A stretch of 64,000 nucleotides of DNA from a virus (IMGVR_UViG_2639762987_000002), one strand, 5' to 3'. Shown: positions 1,212 to 44,360, counted from the first letter of the stretch. Made by a program: numbers and translations. Notes: generated by a model not told the origin, from the letters alone.

Positions 1212-1228
1212 TCAAGGATTTTTTGGAC

Positions 1229-4200
1229 ATGGAACAGTTCAAGAAGAAAAAATTACCGCTTCTTATTGCCGGTGCTGGTGGCAAGAAAAGTAAAAGCTCC
1301 AGCCGTACCCCGGTTGAAGCTGATGATACTGTCAATTCTCGTGCTATGGCAGCCATCCTCGACCTTCTTGGCGAGGGGGTTATCGGTGGCCTGGTAAATG
1401 GCGCAAAGTCGATCTTCATCGACGATTTACCGATCTTGAATGAAGATGGCTCTTCCAACTTCAGCGGTATTACATGGGATTTTCGTGACGGCTCACAAGA
1501 CCAGACGCCAATGGCTGGTTTTGATTTTGTTGAAACGCCTAAGTCCGTAAATATTCAGCTTAAAAAAACACACGACGTTACGGTTTCAATCGATAACGAT
1601 GAAGCTGATCGCGTTCGTGTCATCATGAAATTCCCCTCTTTACGTAGCGTTGATAAAAGCTCTGGCGATACAAATGGCACTACGGTGAAGTACAAATTCC
1701 AGATCGCCAACGCAGACGCAACATTTTCTGATGTAGTGGCAGAAGGTGAGAAAAGCGTTGATATCACGCTAACGGCAAAGAAAACAGGCGTGTATTACCG
1801 TAGCTATGAGCTGAAACTACCTAAGCCTGGTCGTGCATACAAGGTTAGGGTGATTCGTCTTACGGATGATAACAGTAGCCAGTACCTCTACAACGATACC
1901 TGGGTTGATTCCATCGGTGAGATTGTAGATACCCCCATGAACTACCCTAACTCTGCACTTGTTGGCTTAAAGGTCAATTCAGAGCAGTTTGGTAGCACAA
2001 TGCCTTCCCGTTCGTATTTGGTGCGCGGTATCAAAATTCGAGTGCCGTCAAACTACAACGAATACACCAATACTTATGTCGGCGTATGGGACGGTACTTT
2101 TAAGCTGTTGTCTTCTTCAAACCCTGCGTGGATTCTCTACGATTTGCTTACCAATACTCGGTATGGTCTTGGGCAATTTGTGTCGGAGTCCATGATTGAC
2201 CTCGGCCAGCTCTACCAGATTGGTCGATATTGTGACGAAGAGGTCGATGATGGCTTTGGGGGTAAAGAGAAACGCTTTGCAATCAATACGCAGATCACCA
2301 GTCGACAGGACGCATACCGATTAATTCAGGATATTGCCGGTGCATTCCGCGGCATGGTGTTTTGGGCTGGTGGCATGGTTAACATCATGCAGGATAGCCC
2401 ATCAGATCCGGTAATGATGTTTACCAACTCCAACGTCAAAGATGGACTGTTTACCTATAAAGGTTCTGCGCGTAAAGATCGCCCATCCGTTGCGCTCGTG
2501 ACCTACAACAACAAGGAGGACGGTTATAAGCAAAACATCGAGTACGTTGAAGATCAGGACGCAATGCGCCGTTATGGTGAGCGTAAAACAGAAGTCGTAG
2601 CATTTGGATGTACAAGCCGAGGCCAGGCCCACCGAGTTGGTTTGTGGCTTTTGTATACCGCCAGAATGGAGTCGGATGTAATTACATTTACTGCCGGCTT
2701 AGACGCCTCATTTCTGATGCCCGGTGAAACCGTTCTGATTCAGAACAAATATCGTGCAGGTAAACGTAACTCCGGTCGAATTGTGGAGTTTACCAAAAAC
2801 AGCATCACTCTCGATGCGCCTGTGTCGTTAGCTAAAAGCGGCAGCTTTATTCGGATATTGAATCAGGAAGGCAAAATCGTTGAACGCGATGTTCTTGAAA
2901 CTGGCGAAAACATAACAAAGGTTACGTTTTCAAAAGCCCTGTCGTCAGCGGAAACGCCTGTTTTGAACGGTGTCTGGACAATTACAGAACCAGATCTTGA
3001 ACCTATGCGCGTTCGCATCGTTAACATCGCGCAGGGGGAAACGCCGGGTAGCTTTGACATCACCGCTGTTGAGAACAATCCGTCTAAATATGAGGCAATC
3101 GACAATGGTGCAACGCTTATCCCGCAGAATACGACGGTATTGGACCCGACTTACTCCAAGCCGTCTAATTTGCAAATCACTGAAGGGACTTACCTCTCAA
3201 GCCCGGGCAACCTGTCAGTAAAACTGACTGCAACATGGGAAGGGAAATCTCCAGAGTATTGGATCAGTTGGCGACGTTCTGATGAAAACAATGTATCGAA
3301 CTGGCAATCGGCGCGTGTAACCGAAGAACAATACGAAATCGTTAATGTCGCGGAGAATGGACGCTACGACTTCCAACTGTATGCGGTTTCATTCAACGGT
3401 AAAAAAACAGAAATTATCAGTACCGTTTATCAGGTGCTGGGAACAATGACACCGCCGGATGCACCAACGTCATTAACGGCCGTTGGAGACTATCGTAATG
3501 TGATACTGAATTGGGTTAATCCAGATTCGGTAGACCTTGATCACATTAATGTTTACGCATCCCAGACCAACAATCTGGATACGGCGAAACTGATCGCAGA
3601 GTCTGCAAGCACCACCTTTACACATGCTGGTCTTGGGGATAGCGAAACGTGGTATTACTGGGTTCGAGCATCGAACAAGCGAGGTATGTTAAGCCCTCCG
3701 AACTCAAACTTGGGTACAGAGGCGACAACTCGCGATGTACTGTCGTTCCTGGCTGGCAAAATTACATCTTCCGAGCTTGGTCAGGCTCTGCTTGAGGACA
3801 TCAACAGCAAAGCCTCTCAAGAAGCAGTTGACGAGTTAAATGAGCATATCAACCAGAGCGTCGAATCTTTGGAGGGGTCGGTAAACGACGTTAAGGAAGA
3901 TATAGCTGAATTAGATAAGCAGTTCAGCGATAACCTCGCGGGTTTTGAAATAAAATTCAACGAGCGTAGCGATGCTTTGGAGAACGCACAAACCGAGCTT
4001 AAAGGTGAGGTTTCGGCAACGATCGACAAGGTCAATGAAGCGTTTGAAAAAATTGATGCTACTGATGCTGCAATTGTTGAAATCGAAAACACCGTATCTG
4101 AACACGATAAAGCTCTCGCTAATACAGTCGAGGCAATAAAGGCTGCAAGAGACGAAGCGGCGGCTCTTATTGCTAAGGAAAGCGAGGCTCGTGTTGAAGG

Positions 4201-5953
4201 TGATGCCGCAAACGCTAAACAACTGGAAGTGTTGCAGTCGACGGTAGAGGAAAGTTCCGCAGCCGTTGAAGAAATGAAAAAGACGGTTGCAGAGGTCGAT
4301 CGTGCCAGTGCAGAACTGACTACGAACATTGAGGCGTTAGCTAAAACAAATATTGACCTGGCTCTTCGTCAAGATGAAGACCAGCACAAGCAGATGGTCA
4401 ATAACGCGAAGATCGCAACAACACAGAAAACCTTTGCTGATGATATGTCTGCAATGGCCACGAAGGTTGAGGAAATTCGCGTAGAAATTGGCGAAGACAT
4501 TAAGGCCAGTATTCTGGAAGAGTCCACCGCTCGTGCCGATGGCGATGAAGCGTTGGCAAAGCGTGTCACTCAGCTGCAATCTAAGTTTGAAGGAGATATC
4601 AGCGCGGCGATTAGTACAGAACAGGAGGCTCGTACATCTGCCGATGAAGCTTTGACGAAACAAATAACTCAGCTTGAGTCGAAAGTAAGCAACGATATTG
4701 TCGCAGCCATTAAGGAAGAGCAAGAAGCCCGAGCAACGGAAGATTCGGCTCTGGCAAGCCAGATCACCCAACTTCAGGCAAAAGTTGATGATGATATTTC
4801 TGCTGCAATACGCAGTGAGCAGGAGGCGCGTGCGAGCGGAGACTCTGCGTTAGCTAAACAAATAAACCAGCTTCAAGCAAAGGTTGACGGTGATATATCC
4901 GCTGCCATCACTCAGGAGCAGGAGGCCAGAGCAAGTGCTGACCAGGCGCTCTCACGAGAAATTAACAGCCTGCGAGCACAAACCGGAACTGATATTGCCG
5001 CAGCGGTTGCTGTAGAGACAAAGGCAAGGACTGATGCCGATAGTGCATTGTCCACTCAGATTTCGTCTCTTACAGCAAAAGCTAATGATCTCGAGGCATC
5101 TCTTGCCAGAGAAACAACGGCTCGTGCTGATGGTGATACCGCTTTAACAAAAGAGGTTTCAAGTTTAAAAGCACAGACAGCGAAAGATATTAGTGCGGCC
5201 GTTGCAGTTGAAACGCAGGCTCGAACTGATGCTGACTCGGCGTTGTCGTCTCAGATCACCAAGCTGACCTCTCAATACAAAGAGGATATTAAAGCGGCTG
5301 TAGCAACCGAAACGAAAACGCGTACAGAGCAAGATGCTGCATTGGCGACTCAAATCACAAACTTAGAGTCTCAAACGGCAGCCAACATTTCCGCGGCGGT
5401 AACAACTGAAACGACAGCGAGAACGCAGGCAGATAATGCTCTGAGTGGGCGAATCGATACTCTGAAAGCAGAGGTGGATGGAAATACCGCGACAATTCAA
5501 CAGCAGGCAACAGCTATTGCTAATACCAACAAAAAAGTGTCAACCGCGTGGACGTTGAAAATGGAAACTTCAACGAGCGGAGGGCAGAAGTATGTTGCTG
5601 GTATTGCGCTTGGTATCGACACCACTGGCCTTTCTCAGTTTTTGGTGCAGGCTGACAGGTTTGGTTTGGTCAACTCTGTTAACGGGAAGATCACCACGCC
5701 ATTTGTTATCGAAAACAGTATCGCCTATATGAATGGTGCGTATATCAAGGATGGCACAATCACCAATGCAAAAGTAGGCGATCTGCAATCTACCAATTTT
5801 GTTAGCGGTAGATCTGGATGGCGGTTCGGCAAAAATGGAACGCTTGAGATCAACGGTAATAGCGGGGGTAATGGGCGACTGGTCATAAATGGTCAGCGGA
5901 TTGACGTTTATGACGATAACAACGTCTTACGAGTAAGAATTGGCCTTCTGTGA
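1229..5953 (+). CDS. Tail tip host-specificity protein, lambda gpJ-like, with inserted coiled-coil repeat stalk
   Basis: About 1574 aa from ATG 1229 (ORF track starts at TTG 1223); blocks NSALVGLKVNSEQFG, GFGGKEKRF, AFGCTSRGQAHRVGLWL, KYVAGIALGI..LSQFLV match lambda J from memory. Confidence 0.8.
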   Translation: MEQFKKKKLPLLIAGAGGKKSKSSSRTPVEADDTVNSRAMAAILDLLGEGVIGGLVNGAKSIFIDDLPILNEDGSSNFSGITWDFRDGSQDQTPMAGFDFVETPKSVNIQLKKTHDVTVSIDNDEADRVRVIMKFPSLRSVDKSSGDTNGTTVKYKFQIANADATFSDVVAEGEKSVDITLTAKKTGVYYRSYELKLPKPGRAYKVRVIRLTDDNSSQYLYNDTWVDSIGEIVDTPMNYPNSALVGLKVNSEQFGSTMPSRSYLVRGIKIRVPSNYNEYTNTYVGVWDGTFKLLSSSNPAWILYDLLTNTRYGLGQFVSESMIDLGQLYQIGRYCDEEVDDGFGGKEKRFAINTQITSRQDAYRLIQDIAGAFRGMVFWAGGMVNIMQDSPSDPVMMFTNSNVKDGLFTYKGSARKDRPSVALVTYNNKEDGYKQNIEYVEDQDAMRRYGERKTEVVAFGCTSRGQAHRVGLWLLYTARMESDVITFTAGLDASFLMPGETVLIQNKYRAGKRNSGRIVEFTKNSITLDAPVSLAKSGSFIRILNQEGKIVERDVLETGENITKVTFSKALSSAETPVLNGVWTITEPDLEPMRVRIVNIAQGETPGSFDITAVENNPSKYEAIDNGATLIPQNTTVLDPTYSKPSNLQITEGTYLSSPGNLSVKLTATWEGKSPEYWISWRRSDENNVSNWQSARVTEEQYEIVNVAENGRYDFQLYAVSFNGKKTEIISTVYQVLGTMTPPDAPTSLTAVGDYRNVILNWVNPDSVDLDHINVYASQTNNLDTAKLIAESASTTFTHAGLGDSETWYYWVRASNKRGMLSPPNSNLGTEATTRDVLSFLAGKITSSELGQALLEDINSKASQEAVDELNEHINQSVESLEGSVNDVKEDIAELDKQFSDNLAGFEIKFNERSDALENAQTELKGEVSATIDKVNEAFEKIDATDAAIVEIENTVSEHDKALANTVEAIKAARDEAAALIAKESEARVEGDAANAKQLEVLQSTVEESSAAVEEMKKTVAEVDRASAELTTNIEALAKTNIDLALRQDEDQHKQMVNNAKIATTQKTFADDMSAMATKVEEIRVEIGEDIKASILEESTARADGDEALAKRVTQLQSKFEGDISAAISTEQEARTSADEALTKQITQLESKVSNDIVAAIKEEQEARATEDSALASQITQLQAKVDDDISAAIRSEQEARASGDSALAKQINQLQAKVDGDISAAITQEQEARASADQALSREINSLRAQTGTDIAAAVAVETKARTDADSALSTQISSLTAKANDLEASLARETTARADGDTALTKEVSSLKAQTAKDISAAVAVETQARTDADSALSSQITKLTSQYKEDIKAAVATETKTRTEQDAALATQITNLESQTAANISAAVTTETTARTQADNALSGRIDTLKAEVDGNTATIQQQATAIANTNKKVSTAWTLKMETSTSGGQKYVAGIALGIDTTGLSQFLVQADRFGLVNSVNGKITTPFVIENSIAYMNGAYIKDGTITNAKVGDLQSTNFVSGRSGWRFGKNGTLEINGNSGGNGRLVINGQRIDVYDDNNVLRVRIGLL
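4500..5480 (+). repeat. About ten in-frame tandem 99-bp (33-aa) repeats inside the gpJ-like gene
   Basis: Repeating unit DISAAIxxEQEARAxxDxALxxQIxQLxxKVxx read in the translation; predicted alpha-helical. Confidence 0.75.
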
Positions 5954-6046
5954 TGGTAGAAAAAAATATTTATATCGGTAAAAATAAGTAGGTACTTACT
6001 TAATGGTGGGCAAGGATAGCCCACCAAATCAAGGAGCATATTCAAC

Positions 6047-9000
6047 ATGTGGTACAGGGAAGGTACTATCACATTTACACAGGGCAGCAATACTCTGGTT
6101 GGGGCAGGTACAGCCTGGAACGTAACAGCTAATGGTGTGTTGCCGGGGATGATCGTCATTGGCCCCGACAATAAGCTGTATGAGATCAAGCGCGTAACCA
6201 GTGATACGAACATTGTTCTCTCAGAACCTTATACCGGCGAAACTCAGTCTGAAGTTCCGTGCCGAATCATTACGACCTATGAAGGCGACTTAACACAGTT
6301 TAGCGCGCGCTTTACAGCACTAATGTCGCGTATGTCGGCTGATTCCAAGTCCATGCGCAGTTGGTTGACTGCTCTGGATGAGGTGACAATCGAGCGTGAA
6401 GACGGTACAGAAGTGACCGTTAAGCCGCTAATGCAGATCGTCAACGAGCACAACGAAAACGTTGAGTGGTATAAAAATAACACTGACGCGATTGATGCTG
6501 CTGGCGACAAAGCTCGTGAGGCGGCGGCCAGTGCTGCCGCAGCAGCAAAAAGCGCCAATGCCGCTGGAGAAAAAGCCTCTCAAGCGTCTCAAAGTGCATC
6601 CGCTGCGGCATCCTCACAAAGTGCCGCAAGTGCGAGTGCAACTGCTGCGAAAAAATCTGAAACGAATGCTGCAGCGTCACAAAAATCTGCAGCCACTTCT
6701 GCATCCACCGCGACCACGAAGGCGTCAGAAGCTGCCACCTCAGCCCGGGATGCGGCGGCCTCAAAAGAGGCAGCAAAATCATCAGAAACGAGCGCAGCCT
6801 CGAGCGCCAGTAATGCCGCTTCCTCGGCAACGGCGGCTGGAAATTCCGCGAAGGCGGCAAAAACGTCCGAGACGAACGCCAGGTCTTCTGAAACGGCAGC
6901 GGGACAGAGCGCCTCGGCTGCGGCAGGCTCAAAAACAGCGGCTGCGTCGTCTGCCAGTGCCGCGTCAACAAGTGCCGGGCAGGCCTCAGCCAGTGCCACC
7001 GCCGCCGGAAAATCGGCAGAAAGTGCCGCATCGTCTGCTTCAACGGCCACAACGAAGGCTGGCGAAGCCACTGAACAGGCCAGCGCAGCAGCGAGGTCTG
7101 CTTCCGCAGCGAAGACATCCGAAACGAACGCGAAAGCGTCGGAAACCCGTGCAGAATCCTCAAAAACGGCAGCCGCATCGTCCGCCAGTTCGGCAGCGTC
7201 ATCGGCATCATCTGCGTCTGCTTCAAAAGATGAGGCGACCAGACAGGCGTCAGCAGCGAAGGGCAGCGCCACGACGGCATCCACGAAAGCAACAGAGGCG
7301 GCAGGCAGTGCGACGGCTGCATCTCAGAGCAAAACTGCTGCCGAATCTGCTGCGACTCGTGCAGAAGCTGCCGCTGATCGTGCTGAAGAGATTGCCGGTG
7401 CAGTTGCGATGGAAGACGCAAGCCTTACAACTAAAGGTGTTGTGAAACTTAGCAGTGCTGTCGATAGCACCAGTGAATCGCTGGCTGCAACGCCAAAGGC
7501 AGTTAAAACTGTTAAAGATAGTTCAGTTCAAAAAACTGGCGACACAATGGGAGGGCAGTTAAAAATCGGCACGATAAATGCTCTTCGAATATTCAACCAA
7601 GCCTTTGGCCTTATTTTTAGGCGTTCCGAAGATTATATTCATCTTATCCCGACTAATGAAGGGGAGGGAGAAAATGGAGACATCGGTTCATTAAGACCAT
7701 TCTCTATAAACTTAAGATCAGGGTTGGTGTCCATCGGTAATGGACTAAAAGTTGGTGGTAGTGTTACTGGTAATTTGACCGGAAACGCAGATACTGCGAC
7801 CAAGATCAAGACAGCACGTAAGATTGGGGGCGTGGCATTTGATGGATCGGCAGATATCAACTTGCCTGGAGTCAACGCTACCGGTAATCAAAACACTACA
7901 GGTAATGCTGCGACCGCCACGAAACTTCAGGCAGCCAGAACGATTAACGGTGTGTCATTTGATGGTAGTGCAAATATCACATTGACCCCTTCAAATATTG
8001 GGGCGTTGGCATTAACTGGAGGGACTCTTTCAGGTGGTTTAACTGCTGCTGGTGAGATTATTTCAAAGTCAGCAAATGGTCTGCGTATTGCCTATGGCAA
8101 CTATGGATTCTTTATCCGAAATGATGGCTCAAATACATATTTTATGTTGACAGATTCGGGTAACAGTCTTGGTACGTACAATAGCTTAAGGCCGTTTATA
8201 ATTAGTAACTCTACTGGCAATGTTACAATTGCAACTAAATTAAACGCGAGTAGTGGTATCACTGGATCTTTATCGGGTAATGCAAGCACAGCAACCAAAT
8301 TGCAGACAGCAAGAACCATCGGTGGTGTTAGCTTCGATGGCACTGCGAATATTAATTTGCCTGGTGTTAATGCTGCCGGTAATCAGAACACTACCGGTAA
8401 CGCGGCCACAGCGACCAAGTTGCAAACAGCTAGAACTATTAACGGGGTGTCGTTTAACGGCTCTGCGAATATTTCAATACCAACAATTACGTCCAGAGGG
8501 CGCGTTACTGCGCTCACCGGTACAACACAAGGTGCTGCGACTGGATTGCAGATGTACGAGGCATATAACAATGGCTACCCTTCGTCTTACGGGAATGTGC
8601 TTCATCTTAAGGGCGCAACGGCCGTTGGTGAAGGTGAGTTGTTCATAGGTTGGAGCGGTACAAGTGGTGCTCATGCACCTGTACATGTACGTTCGCGACG
8701 AGATACGGATACATCCAGTTGGTCTGAATGGGCGCAAGTTTATACGTCCAAAGACTCAATTCCAGGTGTCAATGCCACCGGTAATCAGAACACTACTGGC
8801 AACGCAGCCTCTGCAACGAAGTTGCAGACAGCCAGAACAATTGGAGGTGTGTCGTTTAATGGCACCGCCAATATTAACTTGCCGGGTGTTAATATAGCGG
8901 GTAATCAGAATACGACTGGTAACGCAGCTTCAGCCACGAAGTTACAAACGGCTCGTACTATCGGTGGTGTTAGTTTTAACGGCACAGCCAATATTAACTT

Positions 9001-9571
9001 ACCTGGTGTGAATACGACCGGTAATCAGAACACTACTGGTAATGCTGCAACCGCCACAAAATTGCAGACAGCAAGGAAAATTGCTGGTGTGGCGTTTGAT
9101 GGCTCTGCCGATATAACTTTGACTGCGGCTAACCTTAATGCTTATACGAAAACAGAGGTAACAAACCTTCTCAGTTCCTATGTGAAGAGTAGTTCTCTTC
9201 CAAGCATGACTGTGCGAACTTCCTCTGTTTCTGGTGGGGATATGGGCATGAGTTTGTCCACATTCATTAGCCACCTTAAATCAAATGGGGCATTTAGCAA
9301 AAGTTATTGGATTGGCTTTGGCGATGCTATGGGATTCAATGCTGGCAGTATCAACAATATAACGGGATTTGGTGCTGTAGAATTAGCAGAATCTATAATC
9401 GAAGTTTTTAATCTACCTAACGGTGATTATACAATTCGTTTAACAACGTCACATAAAGCTGACTACGGTGGAGTGACAAACGCAATCCTCGTTTATCACT
9501 ACCGTAGTAATAGAAGTCCGTCAGGTCAATGGCTGAAATTTGCCGGTACTGTTGGGGCAACAAGCAACTGA
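6047..9571 (+). CDS. Tail fibre protein (side-tail-fibre type)
   Basis: 1174 aa after RBS AAGGAG; long Ala/Ser-rich tract; repeated ~40-aa units with GNAATATKLQTARTIGGVSF typical of phage tail-fibre repeats; follows J-like gene. Confidence 0.75.
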   Translation: MWYREGTITFTQGSNTLVGAGTAWNVTANGVLPGMIVIGPDNKLYEIKRVTSDTNIVLSEPYTGETQSEVPCRIITTYEGDLTQFSARFTALMSRMSADSKSMRSWLTALDEVTIEREDGTEVTVKPLMQIVNEHNENVEWYKNNTDAIDAAGDKAREAAASAAAAAKSANAAGEKASQASQSASAAASSQSAASASATAAKKSETNAAASQKSAATSASTATTKASEAATSARDAAASKEAAKSSETSAASSASNAASSATAAGNSAKAAKTSETNARSSETAAGQSASAAAGSKTAAASSASAASTSAGQASASATAAGKSAESAASSASTATTKAGEATEQASAAARSASAAKTSETNAKASETRAESSKTAAASSASSAASSASSASASKDEATRQASAAKGSATTASTKATEAAGSATAASQSKTAAESAATRAEAAADRAEEIAGAVAMEDASLTTKGVVKLSSAVDSTSESLAATPKAVKTVKDSSVQKTGDTMGGQLKIGTINALRIFNQAFGLIFRRSEDYIHLIPTNEGEGENGDIGSLRPFSINLRSGLVSIGNGLKVGGSVTGNLTGNADTATKIKTARKIGGVAFDGSADINLPGVNATGNQNTTGNAATATKLQAARTINGVSFDGSANITLTPSNIGALALTGGTLSGGLTAAGEIISKSANGLRIAYGNYGFFIRNDGSNTYFMLTDSGNSLGTYNSLRPFIISNSTGNVTIATKLNASSGITGSLSGNASTATKLQTARTIGGVSFDGTANINLPGVNAAGNQNTTGNAATATKLQTARTINGVSFNGSANISIPTITSRGRVTALTGTTQGAATGLQMYEAYNNGYPSSYGNVLHLKGATAVGEGELFIGWSGTSGAHAPVHVRSRRDTDTSSWSEWAQVYTSKDSIPGVNATGNQNTTGNAASATKLQTARTIGGVSFNGTANINLPGVNIAGNQNTTGNAASATKLQTARTIGGVSFNGTANINLPGVNTTGNQNTTGNAATATKLQTARKIAGVAFDGSADITLTAANLNAYTKTEVTNLLSSYVKSSSLPSMTVRTSSVSGGDMGMSLSTFISHLKSNGAFSKSYWIGFGDAMGFNAGSINNITGFGAVELAESIIEVFNLPNGDYTIRLTTSHKADYGGVTNAILVYHYRSNRSPSGQWLKFAGTVGATSN
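6480..7390 (+). repeat. Low-complexity Ala/Ser/Thr-rich coding tract in tail fibre gene
   Basis: Protein region of ~300 aa dominated by A, S, T, K, E; generates spurious long ORFs in other frames and on the minus strand. Confidence 0.8.
7780..9125 (+). repeat. Tail-fibre 120-nt (40-aa) repeats
   Basis: Three in-phase consecutive copies at 8761-8880, 8881-9000, 9001-9120 plus diverged copies near 7861 and 8341 and partial copies. Confidence 0.8.
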
Positions 9572-9609
9572 TTTAGACATTATTTCTAATAAGGATAATT
9601 TATAAGATG

Positions 9610-9645
9610 GTTGTGAGGTCGATAAATATGGCCTCACAACCGCAG
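9610..9645 (+). terminator. Possible hairpin terminator after tail fibre gene
   Basis: 10-bp inverted repeat GGTTGTGAGG...CCTCACAACC; no clear T-run. Confidence 0.35.
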
Positions 9646-9661
9646 TTATAAGGATATATTT

Positions 9662-9916
9662 ATGAGCTATGGTGCACAGGTTTGGTCGCCATCAAGACAG
9701 GAGATGGTCGATGCGTTGGCCCCTGTTTATTACCTCGATTATTTTACTCCCTCTGGTTCAGGAAGTAGAACATATGAGGTTGAGGCGGGATTGGGAATCG
9801 ACTATTACATAATGGACGTAACCAATGGAAAATACACAAGTCTTACGGTTTCTGGAAATACCATTTCGTGGTCTGGAGCTAGTGGCAATTTAAACATATT
9901 GGTTTTTCAAAAATAA
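9662..9916 (+). CDS. Hypothetical protein (tail-fibre-associated by position)
   Basis: 84 aa ORF with RBS AAGGA; no recognisable motif. Confidence 0.4.
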   Translation: MSYGAQVWSPSRQEMVDALAPVYYLDYFTPSGSGSRTYEVEAGLGIDYYIMDVTNGKYTSLTVSGNTISWSGASGNLNILVFQK

Positions 9917-10524
9917 TGTACGGAAGCAAGATATATCGATCTGACGGGAAGGTCTGGATGTCTCCTTCTTTGTCTCCTATCGTTTTTCAGAGAAAGCAGG
10001 TTGTTTCTTTGTCTGGCGGGACAGAGTTTAACACCCAAATATCTCCAGATCGTTCACCGATGATTTTTGTTGCCTATTCGAAAGCTGTTTCATTAATAGC
10101 CAACAGAATAGTGCGTAATAACCAGGTGATTTACAGTTTCGGAGGTCAGGGTAGCGACTCTAGTGCCACGATATACGTATTTTCGAAAGGTATAGCCAAA
10201 AAAGAAACTTGGGGCATGAGTTTTTTCAATGCGCGAGGAGAGGAGATCTATAATACGGCAAATATCCCACTTTCATTTACCTTTCTTAATAATACGGAGT
10301 GGAACAGTTCTGGAGGGCATGTTTTTGATTACCCGCCAGCGATAATCCCAACATATGCAAATGTGTTCGCGGTTCCAGTACCGGGCGGGGCCATGACAAT
10401 GGTTTATGGATATGCGGCATATGGAAATACTGTTAGTTCCATATTCGTAAACCAACTTAATGGCGGCCATAGTTTTAGCGTAAATGGCAGAGTACCGGTA
10501 ATAAATAGAAATCTGTATAACTGA
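9916..10524 (+). CDS. Hypothetical protein (tail-fibre-associated by position)
   Basis: 202 aa ORF, start overlaps upstream stop (TAATG); Gly/Ser/Asn-rich; no recognisable motif. Confidence 0.45.
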   Translation: MYGSKIYRSDGKVWMSPSLSPIVFQRKQVVSLSGGTEFNTQISPDRSPMIFVAYSKAVSLIANRIVRNNQVIYSFGGQGSDSSATIYVFSKGIAKKETWGMSFFNARGEEIYNTANIPLSFTFLNNTEWNSSGGHVFDYPPAIIPTYANVFAVPVPGGAMTMVYGYAAYGNTVSSIFVNQLNGGHSFSVNGRVPVINRNLYN

Positions 10525-10534
10525 TGAGTAAACG

Positions 10535-10765
10535 ATGAAAAGATTATTTCTAACAATAGCTGTTGTTCTCTCTCTTACTGGCTGTCAGAAATTGCCGACA
10601 CCCATATGTTATGGTGAGGCTATCATTGGTGGACAGGAGACAGTCATACCTATATATGCTGTTAAAAAGGTTAACGGCTATACCTTATACAAAGCGGGTA
10701 GCATCTATAACTGGCGATGGGTTGGAGTAGGTGCTTTCTCATCAGTGCGTTGCAATGCTGAATGA
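10535..10765 (+). CDS. Small lipoprotein, candidate receptor-blocking / superinfection-exclusion protein
   Basis: 76 aa; signal peptide MKRLFLTIAVVLSLTGC with lipobox LTGC; lies directly downstream of tail fibre genes. Confidence 0.5.
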   Translation: MKRLFLTIAVVLSLTGCQKLPTPICYGEAIIGGQETVIPIYAVKKVNGYTLYKAGSIYNWRWVGVGAFSSVRCNAE

Positions 10766-10846
10766 TAAGTAAGTACACACCTACAACAAAAGGGTGAAAT
10801 GTGATATAAATCCGCCATCCCGATTTGACTTTTCATGGAGGAAAAC

Positions 10847-11170
10847 ATGTCGAACGAGATGGCGGGCGTTACAACAGAGCAAGTTGAGCGTATTGCCGCG
10901 ATCGTTGCTAGGGAGGTTGTTGGCAAATTAGGTAAAGAGCTACGTGAAGAAATTGGCCAGGAGGTCAATAATCAGCTGAAAACCTACTTTGGTGATATGA
11001 CCCCGGCGCAACATAGTATTCAACACTCCAATCTGGACAAACTCCTTAACCGGTTAGATTCCATCTCCAGTGGGTTCTTTGGCGGCATTGTTTCTAAAAT
11101 AACGTCGTTCATTATTACTGCACTGCTTTTGGGGTTAGCCGCGTATGGCGTAAAAAATGGACTGCAATAA
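10847..11170 (+). CDS. Membrane protein with C-terminal TM helix (possible holin)
   Basis: RBS GGAGGA before ATG 10847 (ORF track begins 10835); single C-terminal hydrophobic helix; first gene of putative lysis cassette. Confidence 0.35.
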   Translation: MSNEMAGVTTEQVERIAAIVAREVVGKLGKELREEIGQEVNNQLKTYFGDMTPAQHSIQHSNLDKLLNRLDSISSGFFGGIVSKITSFIITALLLGLAAYGVKNGLQ

Positions 11171-11183
11171 CAGGAGATCAAGG

Positions 11184-11876
11184 ATGAAGACTCCGAGAGG
11201 CATTCGTAATAATAACCCCGGTAATCTTGATAAAGGATCACCGTGGCAAGGTCTGGTTGCGAATCCAGGCGAACCGCGCTTTTGCACGTTTAAAGACCCT
11301 GTTTGGGGAATTCGTGCGCTGGCGGTGACTCTAATTACCTACCACGACAAACGTCGCGCAAAAGACGGCTCAAGTATCGATACCATTCGTGAAGTTATTG
11401 AACGTTGGGCACCGCCGAATGAAAACAATACTGACGCCTACATTAATGAGGTGTCTAAAGCCGTTGGTGTAACCGCAGACATGATCATCGATCTGCATGA
11501 TTACGACATCCTTCGACCTTTGGTTGAGGCAATCATTCGCCACGAGAATGGCCGAGGCCCGCTAAAAACGCTGAACACCTGGTATGCGGCAGAAGTAATT
11601 GAGGAAGGTCTGCGTCGAGCTGGCGTTGTTAAGCCGGTGAAAACCGTGAAGGCTGTTCCTGTAACTAAAGAAACCGCAGGCGCAACTGTTACAGCAGGTA
11701 TTGGTCTGGCGCAGCTGGCCGATGTTATGCCGCAGGTTTCCGCTGCTATGGATAAAGCACAAGGTCATATCTCTAGCGGGGATACAGTACGCATCATCTT
11801 CGGTATTGCCACTATTGTTGTGGCAGGATTCATTGCCTGGTCGCAGGTAAGAAAACACCAGAAAGGGATGGTCTAA
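11184..11876 (+). CDS. Lysis-cassette protein, putative cell-wall hydrolase with C-terminal membrane anchor
   Basis: RBS CAGGAG before ATG 11184; motif IRNNNPGNL; C-terminal hydrophobic helix; position before spanin pair. Function inferred from context only. Confidence 0.35.
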   Translation: MKTPRGIRNNNPGNLDKGSPWQGLVANPGEPRFCTFKDPVWGIRALAVTLITYHDKRRAKDGSSIDTIREVIERWAPPNENNTDAYINEVSKAVGVTADMIIDLHDYDILRPLVEAIIRHENGRGPLKTLNTWYAAEVIEEGLRRAGVVKPVKTVKAVPVTKETAGATVTAGIGLAQLADVMPQVSAAMDKAQGHISSGDTVRIIFGIATIVVAGFIAWSQVRKHQKGMV

Positions 11877-23615: not shown

Positions 23616-23690
23616 GATGGTGTAGCTCAGCGGTAGAGCAGTTGGCTGTTAACCAACTGGTCGGTGGTTCGAATCCACCCACCATCGCCA
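23616..23690 (+). tRNA. tRNA-Asn (anticodon GTT)
   Basis: Manual fold: acceptor GATGGTG/CACCATC, anticodon loop CTGTTAA, T-loop TTCGAAT, 3' CCA. Confidence 0.75.
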
Positions 23691-23695
23691 ATTTA

Positions 23696-23782
23696 GGGGA
23701 GTTAGTCCGTAGAGGTAGCGGTGTAGACTGTAAATCTACTGTCATGGCGACTCGGGTGGTTCGACTCCATCACTCCCCACCA
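23696..23782 (+). tRNA. tRNA-Tyr (anticodon GTA), long variable arm
   Basis: 87 nt; acceptor GGGGAGT/ACTCCCC, anticodon loop CTGTAAA, T-loop TTCGACT, 3' CCA. Confidence 0.65.
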
Positions 23783-23786
23783 AATT

Positions 23787-23862
23787 GCCGGTTTAGCTCA
23801 GTTGGTAGAGCGCCTGCCTTGTAAGCAGGATGTCAGCGGTTCGAGTCCGTTAACCGGCACCA
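23787..23862 (+). tRNA. tRNA-Thr (anticodon TGT)
   Basis: 76 nt; acceptor GCCGGTT/AACCGGC, D-loop AGTTGGTAGA, anticodon loop CTTGTAA, T-loop TTCGAGT, 3' CCA. Confidence 0.8.
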
Positions 23863-24079
23863 ACACAACAGGAAAGAGCATTGAAAACCGCCGAGACTGC
23901 CCTGTTTTAAGCGTAAGTCCGTGCAAACGTCATACAGTGCTCTTTTCGTTGTGGTTGATGCGCAGACTGATGCGCGGAAAGAAATGCCCCAGCGACACAC
24001 GAGGCGAGTTCACACACTGCAATGCAGTCAGTAGCCGGGGTCGCTAAGCCGGAGATCAGTACCGGTAACCACAACAATT

Positions 24080-24166
24080 GGAGAGTAGGGAGCATGGTGC
24101 TCAAGCGGTCTTGAAAACCGTCCCATTGTGCAAACGATGATGGTTCGATTCCATTACTCTCCGCCA
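24080..24166 (+). tRNA. tRNA-Ser (anticodon TGA), long variable arm
   Basis: 87 nt; acceptor GGAGAGT/ACTCTCC, anticodon loop CTTGAAA, T-loop TTCGATT, 3' CCA. Confidence 0.65.
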
Positions 24167-24320
24167 GACACAGCGTTGAGCGGTTTGGCCTTTTAATCAA
24201 CTCGATTAAGACTCCGCTAACATAAACCAGACCGCTCAACGCTGTGATAGATAATTACGGCAGACGTTCTTAACCATAGCTTGCTAACATCCTAGCAACA
24301 CTTTTTTCAGCGCAAAATTC

Positions 24321-24343
24321 AAAGGGGCTTCGGCCCCTTTTTT
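24321..24343. terminator. Bidirectional rho-independent terminator
   Basis: AAAGGGGC-TTCG-GCCCCTTT with A-run before and T-run after; sits between tRNA cluster and the end of a minus-strand gene. Confidence 0.8.
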
Positions 24344-24358
24344 GTTGAACAGTGCAAT

Positions 24359-25621
24359 TTACTTTGCATAGTCGCCCAATTTTAATATTTCGCGCTTATA
24401 TTCATTAACCATGCTACTGGATTCAGTATAAATTCGATTTAAAAGATTATCGTTATCTTTATTTTCATTTATCTTAATTAGTGCTAATTTATATTCATAG
24501 TCATCAAATGCCACAATTAAATGGTGGCCTGGGATTATATCTTCGTCACTCTTAAAGTATATATCTTCAAGTATGTAATCTAGTTGATTAGATTTTCTTT
24601 TCTCGATGTAATCTTCAGCCATAGCTATTACATCATTCCTGTCATTTAACCTGTTTTTTTCGGAAGGCACATCTTCGTAATGTTGCACGATTGAACAACC
24701 AATAAGGCGTGGGATGTAAACGTCAAAATGAGTAACTCTATCATTCGCGGTTTTAAGTAGTTCCTCAAAGTAGTTTCTTACATGTAAAGGCAACTTCTCA
24801 AAGTAATCATTAATTATAGGAGAACAAGGAGTTTTATAATTCATAAGAACCGACGGTACGAGCTTTGGGTGTCGAAACATCCAGTCCCTTTTAACGTCCG
24901 ATGGAACATAATAACTTTTAATGATATTATCAAAATAATTTATCATTCGAGATTTGAATATTTTGTTGAATCTAAGGTTTATGAATGTATCCAGATAAGG
25001 CATATTTGAATAAGCATCATCAAAAAATATTTCTTCATTGAAGAAATCATATTTATTTAATAAATAAAACAGTTTTTCCGAATTAATATGTTCACAATAA
25101 TCGATTTTTAATCCAAAGATAGCAATGATCAACTTCATCTGAGGTGGGATTTTAAAAATTAATTGTGACACATACGCTCTTTTTTCCTTGAGACATTCCC
25201 CATCAATATAAAATGAACCATCCACATACTCAAATATATTAATAATATGCTTCACATACTGTATTACCTCATGCTGTCTTACCAATGGATAATATAGTCT
25301 ATGTAACTCATCGCTGTTTAAATTAATTTTGTGTTTATCGATAATTTGTTTTGCAAGAAGACATAACTCATCATGTTGATTTAATAAGGAATCAAACCAT
25401 TGTTTAAATGCACTCTTTCGCATTTCGAACAATGATTCAGTTGTTAATTGAAGGGCTGAAAAAGCCGCTTTTGCACTTTTTCTCGCTTCGTAGGCATTCC
25501 ATGCTGTTGCTATAAAAGCAAATGCTGTAGCCAATGTTCCAACAGTTTGACCATTTAAAACAACCCAATCCCAAAAAATGACGGTGAGCAGTAGTATAAT
25601 AATGAAAATTAAAAAAGGCAT
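24359..25621 (-). CDS. AT-rich membrane-anchored protein of unknown function (candidate exclusion/defence gene)
   Basis: 420 aa on minus strand; two N-terminal TM helices; strongly AT-rich by eye relative to flanks; own terminator. Confidence 0.6.
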   Translation of the reverse strand: MPFLIFIIILLLTVIFWDWVVLNGQTVGTLATAFAFIATAWNAYEARKSAKAAFSALQLTTESLFEMRKSAFKQWFDSLLNQHDELCLLAKQIIDKHKINLNSDELHRLYYPLVRQHEVIQYVKHIINIFEYVDGSFYIDGECLKEKRAYVSQLIFKIPPQMKLIIAIFGLKIDYCEHINSEKLFYLLNKYDFFNEEIFFDDAYSNMPYLDTFINLRFNKIFKSRMINYFDNIIKSYYVPSDVKRDWMFRHPKLVPSVLMNYKTPCSPIINDYFEKLPLHVRNYFEELLKTANDRVTHFDVYIPRLIGCSIVQHYEDVPSEKNRLNDRNDVIAMAEDYIEKRKSNQLDYILEDIYFKSDEDIIPGHHLIVAFDDYEYKLALIKINENKDNDNLLNRIYTESSSMVNEYKREILKLGDYAK

Positions 25622-25713
25622 GTATGTATTTCACTCTACTAACTATAAAATATTAGGCTAATGTTAACCAAACAATGCCTTAATTAATAGATTGATCGAG
25701 GCTTTAATAGCTT

Positions 25714-25753
25714 TATAATGCAGACCGCAAAGATAGGTATGCACATACCTATC
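25714..25753 (+). promoter_or_regulatory. Promoter with TATAAT -10 followed by perfect palindrome GATAGGTATG-ca-CATACCTATC
   Basis: TATAAT at 25714-25719; palindrome 25732-25753 belongs to the dispersed GATA(A/G)GTA...TAC(C/T)TATC family. Confidence 0.5.
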
Positions 25754-25795
25754 TTCTTTGTAAGTAAAGTTACATATCAATTCTACGAGGTCACA

Positions 25796-26041
25796 ATGAC
25801 GATCACTATCTACGGACGAGATAACTGCTCATACTGCAAACGTGCGGTCGAGCTGGCGAAGCAACTAAAGGGACATGGCTACGGTGATTATGAGTACATC
25901 GACATCACCACTGCCGGTATCGACAAGGAAAAACTAAGTGAAATTGTTGGTAAACCGGTAGAGACTATCCCCCAAGTGCTGATCGATGGCCAACCGATTG
26001 GCGGATACACAGAACTGGCTGCATACGTCAGCACCCTCTGA
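25796..26041 (+). CDS. Glutaredoxin/NrdC-like thiol-disulfide protein
   Basis: 81 aa from ATG 25796 with RBS GAGGT (ORF track begins 25718); active-site CSYC; C-terminal GG motif. Confidence 0.65.
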   Translation: MTITIYGRDNCSYCKRAVELAKQLKGHGYGDYEYIDITTAGIDKEKLSEIVGKPVETIPQVLIDGQPIGGYTELAAYVSTL

Positions 26042-26046
26042 TTTTA

Positions 26047-26068
26047 ACGGCTCACAGGAGCCGTTTTT
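26047..26068 (+). terminator. Rho-independent terminator
   Basis: ACGGCTC-ACAG-GAGCCGT hairpin followed by TTTTT. Confidence 0.75.
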
Positions 26069-26251
26069 ATTCCCACCAAACTCACTCCCGTTTCCCTTAA
26101 AATTCAAAAAACAACGTCAAAATGATTCCATACCTACTATGTATGGAATCATTGCTGAAAATGAGTTACTTTTACTCTTGATCCTATAAGAATCTATGCC
26201 TAATATACTGTTTACTTATACAGTGCATCGGCGTAACTCGGTGATTGTCAT

Positions 26252-38413: not shown

Positions 38414-39487
38414 ATGGCAAAAGGAAAATCCGCACTGGCACTTGCTCTGAAAAAGAAAATCGGTAGCAACGACGAAATTCAGAAAGTAACTCATTGGATT
38501 GATACAGGCTTTCCACCGTTAAACAAAGCTATTTCTGGTCGTTACGATGGCGGCTTCCCATGTGGTCGTATCGTCGAAGTATTCGGTCCTCCAAGTGCAG
38601 GGAAAACGTTCCTTGCAACAGCAGCGATGATCTCCGCTCAAAAACAAGATGGTCTGGCGGTATTCCTCGATCATGAAAACAGTTTTGACGTTGGTCTGGC
38701 TGTAGCCAATGGCCTGAACGCAGATGAGGATGACGGTCAGTGGGTATACAAGCAGCCTGATACCTTCGAAGACTCTGTAGAGTTGATCGGCACAATTCTT
38801 AAATTGGTACGTGATGAAGAGCTTATTCCTGAATCAGCACCTATCTGTATCGTGGCTGACTCACTTGCGTCTATGGTTCCGAACTCCAAAGCCGAGAAGT
38901 TCGAAAAGATGGCTGAAGGCACTGCCAAAGACAAAGATCAGCTAAACATGAACGACAATACGGCACTGGCTCGTGCGACAAGTGCGAACTTCCCTACTCT
39001 GGCTTTGTGGGCACGCAAATACAACGCCTGCATCATCTTCTTGAATCAGGTTCGCACAAAAATCGGTGTAATGTTTGGCGACCCTACTACGTCGCCAGGT
39101 GGAGATTCACCGAAGTTCTACGCTTCTGTACGTATCCGTCTTGGTGCATCGGTGATGAAGGATGGTAAAGAGAAGATCGGCCAGGACGTAGGCGCAGAAT
39201 GCATCAAAAATAAAGTTGCACCACCGTATGGCAAATGCACCTGGAAATTCTACTTCGATCCTACTCGTGGCCTCGACGTTATCGAATCGCTCGTCGAGTA
39301 CATGCTGGAAGAAGGATACCTGCCAAAGAACGCCAGCGGGCGAGTTGAAATTGGTGACAAGAAATACACCAAATCGCAGATCGTCGAGATGTATCGGGAG
39401 AAGCCACTGGCTGAAATCATTGCGGCTTTGCAGGCAATCGACGACCGAAGAGCAAAAGACAACCCCACCGAGTCAGTAGAAGAGTAA
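38414..39487 (+). CDS. RecA-family recombinase
   Basis: 357 aa; Walker A VFGPPSAGKTFLA; RBS AAAGGAG. Confidence 0.65.
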   Translation: MAKGKSALALALKKKIGSNDEIQKVTHWIDTGFPPLNKAISGRYDGGFPCGRIVEVFGPPSAGKTFLATAAMISAQKQDGLAVFLDHENSFDVGLAVANGLNADEDDGQWVYKQPDTFEDSVELIGTILKLVRDEELIPESAPICIVADSLASMVPNSKAEKFEKMAEGTAKDKDQLNMNDNTALARATSANFPTLALWARKYNACIIFLNQVRTKIGVMFGDPTTSPGGDSPKFYASVRIRLGASVMKDGKEKIGQDVGAECIKNKVAPPYGKCTWKFYFDPTRGLDVIESLVEYMLEEGYLPKNASGRVEIGDKKYTKSQIVEMYREKPLAEIIAALQAIDDRRAKDNPTESVEE

Positions 39488-40693: not shown

Positions 40694-40709
40694 AAAGGTT
40701 AAGTTAATT

Positions 40710-41534
40710 ATGCCCAACCACATTACAAACGAAATCCGAGTCATAGGTGGTACAAATAAACAACGCTTAGATTTCATACGTGCCATAACTAACAAAAAAG
40801 GTCTAATTGACTTTAATACCATTTGCAGACGTCCGAAAAGTATAGAAATGGAAGAAAACAATCATATCAGGCGCATGGCCTCTGCAATGGCGGGCGAAAC
40901 AGTTTACGACCACATGTTCGGTGAATTAAAGACTCCAGAACAGGTCGAATTAGCTATGCGTGAATCAGGAATGACACGCAAGGAAATTCGCAAAATCAAA
41001 GAGCAGGCTCTTATGCGGCTTGAGAATTATCGTCGCTATGGCTATTACTCATGGTTTGACTGGTCGCGAGCTAATTGGGGAACAAAATGGAATGCCTACA
41101 ACATCGAAATGCCCGTAAAACGTATCCCTACACGTATTAAGTACGGCCATAATTTCCGCCATACACACGTTCGAGCATATGCAAAAAGAATCTATAAAAA
41201 ACGTCTTGCAAGACATGCCGCAACTGGTGGTGAGTTGGTGATTCGCTTTGAAACAGCCTGGTCTATGCCAAAACCAATTTATCAAGCGATGGCTAGAAAG
41301 TTCCCGCACCTTGAGTTTGTAATACGTTATGCAGACGAAGACTTCGGCAATAACTGCGGATTCATTTTACTTCGCAACGGCAAATGGGAATATGACTACA
41401 TTGCACCGGCGAATAACAAACAATCGTCAGAAGAAAAAATCAAATGGCGCAAGTTCGCCTTTGAGTTATGTTGTCCTGGTATCACTCCACAAGAATACGG
41501 TCTAAATGAAGAATACGAATACGCCGGATATTAA
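40710..41534 (+). CDS. Hypothetical protein
   Basis: 274 aa; Trp-rich motif YSWFDWSRANWGTKWNAYNIE; basic. Confidence 0.5.
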   Translation: MPNHITNEIRVIGGTNKQRLDFIRAITNKKGLIDFNTICRRPKSIEMEENNHIRRMASAMAGETVYDHMFGELKTPEQVELAMRESGMTRKEIRKIKEQALMRLENYRRYGYYSWFDWSRANWGTKWNAYNIEMPVKRIPTRIKYGHNFRHTHVRAYAKRIYKKRLARHAATGGELVIRFETAWSMPKPIYQAMARKFPHLEFVIRYADEDFGNNCGFILLRNGKWEYDYIAPANNKQSSEEKIKWRKFAFELCCPGITPQEYGLNEEYEYAGY

Positions 41535-41581
41535 AAAAAATTGTCATTTAGCTTTACGCATGAAGCATAGAGGTTAATAAG

Positions 41582-42322
41582 ATGAAAAGAAAAATTGAAG
41601 AACCAAAAACGACCCTTAATAAACATGGGGAAAAAATTCAAACACATCCAGCGTTCGGTCTTGTGAAAACAAGCCGTGTTAGCACAACTGGCATTCGCCT
41701 ATTTGATTCAGAACTGGAACATAGAGACTATATTGAAATAGGCGTTTACGAGGCGGAACTGTCCTTAGACAATGAACGAACCCGCCCACAAAGAAGTTGC
41801 AATAGACGGCCTTTAGTTGAAATTAGACTTAGCCAGGCACAATGGGCTGCTATGGTTAGCAGTTTTGGAGTGGGCGAAGGTGTGCCATGCACTATTTCAT
41901 ATAAAACCATTGGAGACTCAATTAGAGTTCATGATATTGCCGAGCAAAAAAGTATTCGGCAAAAATTCAACGATCAAATAAAGGCCGCTACGAATAGTGA
42001 GATTGATCGACTTAATCAGCAAGTTTCAGAGCTAGGTGAACTTGTGAAAAAAGGAAGAGCTGGAAAACGTGACCTTGAAGAACTATATAGAAAACTAGCA
42101 TCTGCTGTAGCTAACCTTCCTGAAAATCTGTGCTTTGCTACCGAATTAATGCAGGAACAAATGGATGAAATTGTCTCATCTGGAAAGGCGGAGATTGAGG
42201 CGTATGTTGCGGGCACGGTTATGCGTAAAGGGTTAGCAGCATTAGGCACAGAATCATGCATTAACGATGATCCTACTGTCTCTATCACCAAAATGGAAAG
42301 CGGTAAAGAATTACTGCCATAA
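41582..42322 (+). CDS. Hypothetical protein (coiled-coil)
   Basis: 246 aa; RBS GAGG. Confidence 0.5.
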   Translation: MKRKIEEPKTTLNKHGEKIQTHPAFGLVKTSRVSTTGIRLFDSELEHRDYIEIGVYEAELSLDNERTRPQRSCNRRPLVEIRLSQAQWAAMVSSFGVGEGVPCTISYKTIGDSIRVHDIAEQKSIRQKFNDQIKAATNSEIDRLNQQVSELGELVKKGRAGKRDLEELYRKLASAVANLPENLCFATELMQEQMDEIVSSGKAEIEAYVAGTVMRKGLAALGTESCINDDPTVSITKMESGKELLP

Positions 42323-42342
42323 ATGCATCTGAGGTACTGACA

Positions 42343-44313: not shown

Positions 44314-44360
44314 ATGCAAACTGACTGCGGCTCGTTCCGCAGTCATATTTCATAGTCGTC

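Follow-up and report, generated by a model that had tools for sequence, protein, structure and literature searches.

Recurrent motifs in tail fibres were reportedly described by Haggard-Ljungquist (1992) and Sandmeier (1992, 1994; both cited in PMC3945230) as recombination linkers at which tips are exchanged. The myoviruses Mu and P1 exchange their tips through Gin/Cin inversion, and these tips depend on a chaperone (U / Tfa) encoded downstream. The T4 gp34 fibre is built as a repeated fibrous motif interrupted by knobs (PMC5537660), and the Ur-lambda structure paper assigns residues 102-393 of Stf, which it models as a trimeric fibre, to the ‘proximal coiled-coil domain’ (PMC12617516). Escherichia phage Cyrano (= pLF82), an SSU5-like siphovirus phage-plasmid, makes virions, which were described as those of a siphovirus (PMC9928086). 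Here we analysed a 64,000-nucleotide (nt) stretch of viral DNA, IMGVR_UViG_2639762987_000002 (hereafter the window), most of whose length is alignable to Cyrano, and in it the gene at 6047-9571. We read this gene, with a probability of roughly 80%, as the side tail fibre of a plasmid-maintained SSU5-like siphovirus: a modular rod whose short repeated units are old and codon-randomised and only rarely gain or lose copies by in-frame crossover.

The open reading frame (ORF) encodes 1174 amino acids (aa) plus a stop codon on the plus strand, is preceded by an AAGGAG Shine-Dalgarno sequence 8 nt 5′ of its ATG, and is a real tail-fibre gene. It starts 94 nt downstream of ORF 1223-5953 (1576 aa), a gpJ-type tip protein with FNIII-A_GpJ, Phage-tail_3 and Phage_Tail_Tip domains (Pfam), and this gpJ-then-fibre order is syntenic in Cyrano and related plasmids. 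PHROG tail-fibre families match the protein at E = 0, PF21446 (Gp34_trimer) scores 92.1 bits against a cut-off of 27, and lambda Stf is matched by BLASTP at 4e-23. The tail-fibre assignment made by a first-pass annotation of the sequence is confirmed, because the gene lies downstream of gpJ, has PHROG and Gp34_trimer matches, and matches lambda Stf, Mu S and T4 gp34. By homology it is an ordinary, already catalogued side tail fibre of an SSU5-like E. coli phage-plasmid; nothing in it departs from known tail-fibre modularity, and no new question is opened. The E. coli plasmid NZ_CP070135.1 carries it at 99.8% identity, and Cyrano CYRAN_21, annotated as ‘tail fiber protein’, is 97.9% identical over the shared 58%. 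CYRAN_21 occupies the same locus after gpJ. Its protein does not differ from that of the window as far as aa 487, a part that comprises the anchor, the coiled coil and the collar motif, and it shares the last repeated unit (C3, below) and the receptor-binding tip at 97% nt identity. It differs in its length (1341 aa), in its central modules, where the knobs are other ones, in a three-unit array that stands elsewhere, in the single unit before the tip, and in lacking the two small ORFs that follow the window fibre.

The distal half of the protein contains 40-aa units, encoded by 120 nt each, in arrays that we call A, B and C. Tandem Repeats Finder (TRF) returned a single array in the whole 64 kb (8765-9119, period 120, 3.0 copies, 73% matches, score 365), which is array C. 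The first-pass annotation had placed three in-phase, near-identical 120-bp repeats at 8761-9120 and had mentioned diverged copies elsewhere. The three in-phase repeats are present, one base away from the codon register (8762-9121), and the diverged copies correspond to the four 40-aa units at aa 567-646 and 732-811; near-identity, however, does not describe the DNA. Pairwise and codon-aligned, the units of array C agree at 91/120, 94/120 and 82/120 positions (68-78%, ungapped; 91, 93 and 82 of 120 at the earlier offset), far beyond chance, and the longest exact runs shared by these pairs are 14, 23 and 11 nt. Near-identity is found only in the protein and only between C1 and C2, which agree at 38/40 residues, C3 matching C1 at 31/40 and C2 at 30/40. 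Across all 21 unit pairs of the three arrays, nt identity ranges from 64 to 94/120.

Codon choice was compared between units at positions coding the same amino acid, with a random draw from the gene’s own codon usage as the null. C1 and C2 have 17 identical codons, against 13.7 ± 2.9 expected, and over the unit pairs z ranges from -1.3 to +3.0, the highest value being that of C1-C3 (z = 3.0). The two units C1 and C2 have the rare derived residues Ser17 and Asn33 in common. Adjacent units in Cyrano, in other plasmid alleles, in Goslar and in HdSG1 have the same codon-scrambled pattern. No concerted evolution between units was found, and orthologous units in other isolates are 97-100% identical. 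A signal that units were ‘more different than random’ (Nei-Gojobori pS 0.7-1.0) was rejected as an artefact of two-fold-degenerate sites, the codon test indicating plain saturation. The units are best read as old paralogues whose peptide has been held by purifying selection while codon choice drifted to randomness.

The unit consensus is PGVNxxGNQxTTGNAATATKLQTARTIGGVSFDGSANIxL. Unit DNA is recognisable at about 70-76% in the fibres of Goslar, P7 (Sv′, about 74%), 9g, JenK1, HdSG1, Acinetobacter T4-likes and a Prochlorococcus phage; because these phages are very different, we regard the 40-aa unit as a pan-phage fibre motif. PF03406 (Phage_fiber_2) gave no match, with E limits of 0.01 for the complete protein and of 10 for the array by itself; in the array search Pfam as a whole returned only noise. 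Some homologues carry PF03406 elsewhere in the protein. A profile built from 28 diverse units and run against all PDB chains found phage L Dec (6e3c, E = 7e-4), in its trimeric C-terminal spike, and the PhiM1 fibre gp47 (8vbx, E = 2e-3), both weakly, and gp34 and gp12 chains did not match at E up to 10. When the array was searched against PDB with phmmer, the sole hit was a chance match to rotavirus VP4 (E = 0.32).

Unit number was surveyed in 5,426 complete E. coli genomes, of which 177 match the 3′ kilobase of the fibre gene and 8 carry array C. In seven of these eight the match spans 1012 nt, with three units, and in the remaining one 1252 nt; both IMG/VR contigs with array C have three units. 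Array C therefore has three units in 9/10 independent sequences, and the three-unit arrays are 97-100% identical. In the longer allele, from E. coli MS 145-7 (NZ_CP146657.1), the gene has 22 substitutions relative to the window and a single in-frame insertion of 240 nt. Its five units are ordered C1, C2, a hybrid, C2 and C3, where the first 15 nt of the hybrid are C3-specific and the remainder C1-specific, and the switch point lies inside ACCGGTAATCAGAACACTACTGG, a 23-nt run common to C1 and C3; no other exact in-register run in any of the 21 unit pairs of the gene is as long. This order is the one that an unequal crossover between C3 and C1 would be expected to produce. Shen and Huang (1986) are said to have placed the lower limit for RecA-dependent exchange in E. 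coli at about 23-27 bp, and the 23-nt run is at this classically reported limit.

The plasmid NZ_CP099896.1 of E. albertii 153_2_TBG_A has two units where Cyrano has three, with a gap of exactly 120 nt and a unit-1/unit-2 hybrid, and this unit loss would be a second, independent event, in another array. The same receptor-binding tip stands behind one, three or five units; among protein clusters, 30 have it after one unit and 4 after three. The single unit of Cyrano was also considered as a C1/C3 deletion hybrid, but the alignment did not bear this out: homology to the window sets in among the first ~25 nt of that unit, and the knob before it is another module. The first-pass annotation had proposed that the repeats are recombination substrates that could vary fibre length, and had set against this the possibility that they are invariant across isolates. 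They are not invariant, given the five-unit allele, the loss of one unit in the sister array and the existence of one- and three-unit alleles. Natural length variants do exist, but the units are poor substrates and the events rare, so that a change of fibre length by recombination at the repeats appears supported as an infrequent outcome. What had been observed is thus real, though mis-described on two points, and its interpretation is right in kind and wrong in degree.

The element has a RecA of its own at 38414-39487 (+; 357 aa, PF00154). The window also aligns at 98% nt identity to a Cyrano stretch annotated with UvsY, a gp32-like single-stranded DNA-binding protein (SSB) and an exonuclease, and at 98% to one with SbcCD-like and RuvC genes; these labels are those of the Cyrano annotation, carried over to the window by alignment. 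Phage recombinases act on short, diverged homologies (PMC3945230). The natural variants indicate that the conserved coding sequence of the units supplies short identity islands, at which rare unequal crossover would add or remove whole units in frame and inter-allelic crossover would splice different distal cassettes together. The record with the five-unit allele is a plasmid of 198,406 bp, typed as conjugative IncC plus rep_cluster_488; an IncC plasmid and the phage-plasmid seem to have joined in it as a cointegrate.

Comparisons between alleles place the joints of such cassettes. Against the allele GTEN_23, identity is 96-100% to about 7446, collapses across 7447-7536 just after the ATPKAVK motif, and returns at about 8271-8370 inside unit B1, which marks the right junction of the central cassette of that allele. 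Other alleles have four units at the position of array B. Against more than 100 Cyrano-type alleles, 97% identity starts at 9000-9002, the first bases of C3, and other alleles keep C1-C3 and the neck and then, after ...NLLSSY, have a different tip with a peptidase-S74-type chaperone domain. The mosaic junctions can accordingly be placed behind the ATPKAVK motif, within B1, among the ~25 nt at the start of C3 and immediately past the C3 neck. The most plausible source of a change in host range is the exchange of tips at such conserved linkers. The earlier suggestion that the repeats could vary host range is not supported for unit number, since the same tip stands behind different unit numbers and tips are changed by cassette exchange downstream of C3. 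As in the motif-linker proposals of 1992-94, conserved motifs are common to the fibres of unrelated phages (here Goslar, 9g, JenK1, Acinetobacter T4-likes and cyanophage P-TIM68) and mosaic junctions fall at motifs; the principle is the same, and what is added here are two in-frame unit gain or loss events with hybrid units. The locus thus offers a worked example of fibre-module rearrangement, with two natural unit-number events and cassette junctions at conserved motifs, and anyone who engineers phage-plasmid or lambdoid fibres can use the units and the ATPKAVK motif as ready-made sites for splicing.

The fibre as a whole would be a rod, presumably a trimer, assembled from modules of four sorts: an SSU5-type N-terminal anchor, a coiled coil of roughly 300 residues in 43 Ala/Ser heptads of lambda Stf lineage, three modules that each join a unit array to a knob, as in P1/Mu S and T4 gp34, and a Mu-S-type receptor-binding tip. 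In such a rod the units might serve as shaft spacers that set the knob spacing and the reach of the tip. The tail fibre of Salmonella phage SSU5 is 77.8% identical in nt to the gene over query positions 1-513, and the N-terminal domain is unrelated to lambda StfN, the lambda alignment starting only at aa 202; the virion-attachment role of aa 1-150 is presumed from position.

The tract that follows is Ala/Ser/Thr-rich, as first described (aa 151-455 are 38% Ala, 23% Ser and 10% Thr), but the term ‘low-complexity’ is misleading for a sequence in strict heptads. Residue autocorrelation reaches z = 10 at lag 7 and z = 7-9.5 at all multiples of 7 to 56, and in the Fourier spectra of the Ala and Ser/Thr indicators the highest power is at 3.5 residues. 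The 43 heptads run with zero phase breaks, with Ala at position 2 in 43/43, Ser at position 5 in 33/43 and Ala at position 6 in 30/43. Residues 205-352 of lambda Stf (orf-401/orf-314) are 72% identical to window aa 202-349, and residues 231-394, which include the KG(I/V)V.LSSA...LAATPKAVK motif region, are 54% identical to aa 312-496 with a 21-residue gap (3 heptads); from one shared anchor to the other, the tract of the window exceeds that of lambda by exactly 105 residues (15 heptads). Further differences from lambda are the absence of tfa after the window fibre and the distal part, which is of T4 gp37 type in lambda and of P1/Mu/gp34 type in the window. In a single-sequence AlphaFold2 (AF2) model of aa 130-500, helices take up residues 2-166 and 171-347 of the fragment (about aa 131-476), with a predicted local distance difference test (pLDDT) score, taken as a 10-residue block mean, mostly of 70-88 in the helices. 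The modelled fold-back at fragment residues 166-170 is best taken as a monomer artefact, a kind of artefact also described for Stf (PMC12617516). The tract is thus predicted to be a coiled-coil shaft and not low-complexity filler; at 0.15 nm per residue its length would be about 45 nm.

Beyond the shaft, the collar motif at aa 463-487 aligns to Mu S (5yvq) and lambda Stf, and the distal half then follows the repeated plan of unit array plus knob. Knob 1 matches PF21446 over aa 617-719 (92 bits, cut-off 27), Mu S 5yvq at E = 8e-30 and T4 gp34 4uxe at E = 9e-19. T4 gp34 (4uxe, 5nxf, 5nxh, 9x3r) has this trimerisation knob and the overall plan in common with the window fibre, unlike which its repeat is the gp34/gp12 alpha-beta repeat, a class to which the window units do not demonstrably belong. 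Knob 2 matched no Pfam family. At the end of the protein, the tip matches the Mu fibre 8ju3 by phmmer (E = 2.5e-13, aa 1062-1153). In an AF2 model of aa 895-1174 the tip domain has block mean pLDDT values of 65-88, and Foldseek against PDB returned 8ju3, ‘Mu phage tail fiber’, as the sole significant match (E = 2.9e-7; next, E = 0.77). Its likeness to Mu S makes the LPS core a candidate receptor. Mu gp49 (S) and P1/P7 gpS (5yvq, 8ju3) resemble the window fibre in three features, namely the collar motif, a knob of Gp34_trimer type and the fold of the C-terminal receptor-binding domain, and they differ from it in the inversion and chaperone systems mentioned above, since neither an invertible segment nor a chaperone gene was found with the window fibre. 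Internal knobs resembling the C-terminal receptor-binding domain occur in the Cyrano fibre at aa 810-940 (L001 6000-10026) and in GTEN_23 (L004) at aa 520-640, with the pattern ...GAFN..W......G.IEV....YTIR.TT...; one fibre may display more than one tip-like module along its shaft.

Several points weigh against our reading. Each unit-number variant is known from one public assembly, and the exact C3/C1 hybrid junction had 0 matches in IMG/VR. The identity at the E. albertii junction is only 7-12 nt. Sequence tells neither the direction nor the mechanism of the changes, which may have come about by RecA-type crossover, by replication slippage or by template switching. No solved structure matches the unit strongly; in the AF2 monomer of aa 895-1174 most of the array has block mean pLDDT values of 39-56, with long stretches below 50 and the units unfolded. 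The trimeric state, the unit fold, the rise per unit and any phenotype of unit number are matters of inference. Finally, no chaperone gene of the Tfa, U or gp38 type was found 3′ of the fibre with Pfam, NCBIfam and PHROG: the downstream ORFs 9662-9916 and 9916-10524 match only PHROG 557 and PHROG 425, neither a chaperone family, NCBIfam had no match to the fibre or to the two ORFs, and the two ORFs had no Pfam match. Cyrano has the same tip and no gene between fibre and holin. A missing chaperone does not exclude a fibre, some tips folding without a separate one.

The single-record variants raise the question of whether the units are purely structural and effectively invariant, with the five- and two-unit arrays as assembly artefacts and the one- and three-unit alleles as unrelated cassettes. 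The missing hybrid junction agrees with this, as does the C2-specific 41-mer, which would match a five-unit array twice and had 0 matches in a metagenome scan; in IMG/VR that 41-mer occurs in 1 contig and a C1-specific 42-mer in 2, and both contigs are three-unit. We nevertheless consider such invariance unlikely: the variants are exact 120-nt multiples, in frame, with the hybrid switch inside shared identity, which is the signature of crossover and not of an assembler, the two arrays affected are different ones and belong to different lineages, and the rest of the MS 145-7 gene differs by only its few substitutions. The strong form of the first-pass proposal, a hypervariable contingency locus in which near-identical repeats slip or recombine often and fibre length varies within populations, would account for the existence of length variants and for a gene that is ‘partial’ in many short-read assemblies. 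Units that are 68-78% identical (82-94/120), exact runs of at most 23 nt, inter-unit codon identity at the random-draw level and the lack of concerted evolution all speak against it, and frequent copy-number polymorphism is not seen, given that 1/10 independent array C sequences differs and that 7/8 complete E. coli genomes and both IMG/VR contigs keep exactly three units at 97-100% identity; we rate it as very improbable. A further idea is that codon scrambling is itself selected, since arrays of identical units would collapse, and that with rare unit steps a tip that stays the same is brought to a reach suited to how thick the O-antigen or capsule is. Codon identity between C1 and C2 is random although both have Ser17 and Asn33, scrambling of this kind is seen in all adjacent pairs of five independent fibres, and the same tip occurs behind 1, 3 or 5 units, all of which would fit. 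Codon identity is at saturation, however, and not beyond it, great age with purifying selection explains it equally well, and unit number tracks no host information at hand, so that this reading of the sequences is, in our view, a doubtful one. The broader notion that fibre length is an evolvable host-range parameter besides tip identity, with the arrays as a ‘throttled’ length switch and scrambling selected for stability, is comparably improbable; were it true, short identity islands such as the C1/C3 run would allow rare whole-unit steps that re-tune the reach of the tip through O-antigen or capsule.

Two further explanations were weighed. The Ala/Ser tract could be a disordered linker, or could host genuine overlapping genes, as it does contain ORFs of 231-327 aa in other frames, with equivalents annotated in lambda and by the Prokaryotic Genome Annotation Pipeline (PGAP). 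These three long ORFs were called spurious at the outset, and rightly so, because substitutions pile up at the third position of the fibre frame: against two lambdoid stf genes, the counts at fibre-frame codon positions 1/2/3 are 16/12/53 and 15/15/39. Their translations are Arg/Pro/Gln-rich or Ala/Asp/Phe-rich composition artefacts, and the GCN/TCN-rich composition of the tract by itself creates long stop-free alternative frames. With a perfect heptad phase over 43 repeats, a helical AF2 model and homology to the lambda Stf coiled coil as well, we find a linker or overlapping genes highly improbable. Hardly credible at all is a dedicated diversification system, whether a Mu/P1-like invertible segment or a diversity-generating retroelement. 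Relatives of the distal modules do lie in the invertible C segment of P7/P1, but only two inverted repeats, weak and of 18 nt, occur in 5900-11200, the annotations of the closest relatives (Cyrano and annotated plasmids) place no invertase next to the fibre, and no template/variable repeat pair was found among the direct repeats. A modular fibre with rare in-frame unit crossover thus remains the reading that we prefer. Its features are collected in the table.

Table. Positions of the fibre gene, its modules and the overlapping frames in the window.
Feature	Position	Strand	Basis
Side tail-fibre gene, SSU5/Cyrano-type phage-plasmid	6047-9571	+	ORF, Shine-Dalgarno, PHROG, relatives
N-terminal domain, aa 1-150, SSU5-type, presumed virion attachment	6047-6496	+	SSU5 match
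Ala/Ser shaft, 43 unbroken heptads (x-A-x-x-S-A-x), predicted alpha-helical coiled coil	6497-7411	+	Periodicity, lambda homology, AF2
Three spurious composition-driven ORFs, joint span	6441-7445	.	ORF list, substitution pattern
Other-frame ORF, 326 aa	6441-7421	-	
Other-frame ORF, 327 aa	6462-7445	+	
Other-frame ORF, 231 aa	6589-7284	-	
Conserved motif KGVVKLSSAVDSTSESLAATPKAVK, aa 463-487, shaft end, left junction of allele mosaics	7433-7507	+	Mu S, lambda Stf alignments
Unit array A, two 40-aa units A1-A2, aa 567-646	7745-7984	+	Core motif positions, unit table
Knob 1, aa 647-731, T4 gp34 / Mu S-type trimerisation domain	7985-8239	+	Pfam, PDB
Unit array B, two 40-aa units B1-B2, aa 732-811	8240-8479	+	Unit table
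Knob 2, aa 812-905, conserved globular module	8480-8761	+	Kept in homologues P0001-P0034
Unit array C, three tandem 120-nt / 40-aa units	8762-9121	+	TRF, pairwise identities
C1	8762-8881	+	Codon-aligned unit
23-nt exact run in C1, crossover site of the five-unit allele	8777-8799	+	Run lengths
C2	8882-9001	+	Codon-aligned unit
C3	9002-9121	+	Codon-aligned unit
Partner copy of the 23-nt exact run in C3	9017-9039	+	Run lengths
Neck and C-terminal receptor-binding domain, aa 1026-1174, Mu tail-fibre (S) type	9122-9568	+	phmmer, AF2, Foldseek

The coiled-coil tract is also of value for annotation, as it misleads gene callers. In lambda, orf206b (L006 5148-5768) is an annotated opposite-strand ORF inside the Ala/Ser tract, a spurious frame like those of the window, and in NZ_CP099896.1 (L009 1043-1726) PGAP placed a minus-strand ‘hypothetical protein’ over the tract, with a truncated fibre coding sequence (CDS) as the result. 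Truncated public fibre CDSs start after the Ala/Ser tract, and one fibre (L011 603-4598) is named ‘short-chain fatty acid transporter’ in its public record. Many database entries for the fibre come from short-read assemblies and are ‘partial’, cut at contig ends; assemblies possibly break in the unit arrays. The Ser, Thr and Asn codons of the fibre are unusually abundant (13%, 12% and 7%), with synonymous codons used almost evenly. A tRNA cluster at 23616-24166 (+) contains Asn(GTT), Tyr(GTA), Thr(TGT) and Ser(TGA), where the Cyrano annotation lists Asn, Thr and Ser only.

Scans for promoters and terminators around the fibre gene gave nothing notable. The two small ORFs 9662-9916 (84 aa) and 9916-10524 (202 aa), both on the plus strand, sit between the fibre and the lysis genes. 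PHROG 557 is labelled ‘outer membrane protein’ and PHROG 425 ‘membrane associated protein’, in the moron category. The pair is present in the closest plasmids and absent from Cyrano, and because Cyrano has the same fibre tip, we consider the pair to be an independent indel, possibly of morons or exclusion genes rather than fibre chaperones.

The gpJ-like protein has about 10 tandem 33-residue repeats at aa 1091-1420 (window 4493-5482; lag-33 z = 19.9), of the form DISAAI..EQEAR...D.AL..QI.QL.AKV. They escaped TRF at the DNA level and are therefore a protein repeat with diverged codons, as in the fibre. The 33-residue period (3 x 11) suggests a hendecad-type coiled-coil insertion, which makes the protein long (1576 aa, against 1132 aa and a 3,399-nt CDS for lambda J). 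Elsewhere, the window RecA is intein-free, whereas an intein that carries a LAGLIDADG homing endonuclease splits its Cyrano orthologue (L008 23066-25405; 779 aa). This intein, present in Cyrano only, accounts for the gap of 1.26 kb where the window is aligned with Cyrano. Window positions 23692-26103, 40703-42786 and 44313-46139 have no match of more than 400 bp to Cyrano 32000-81000, and these three stretches look like accessory indels between the two phage-plasmids.

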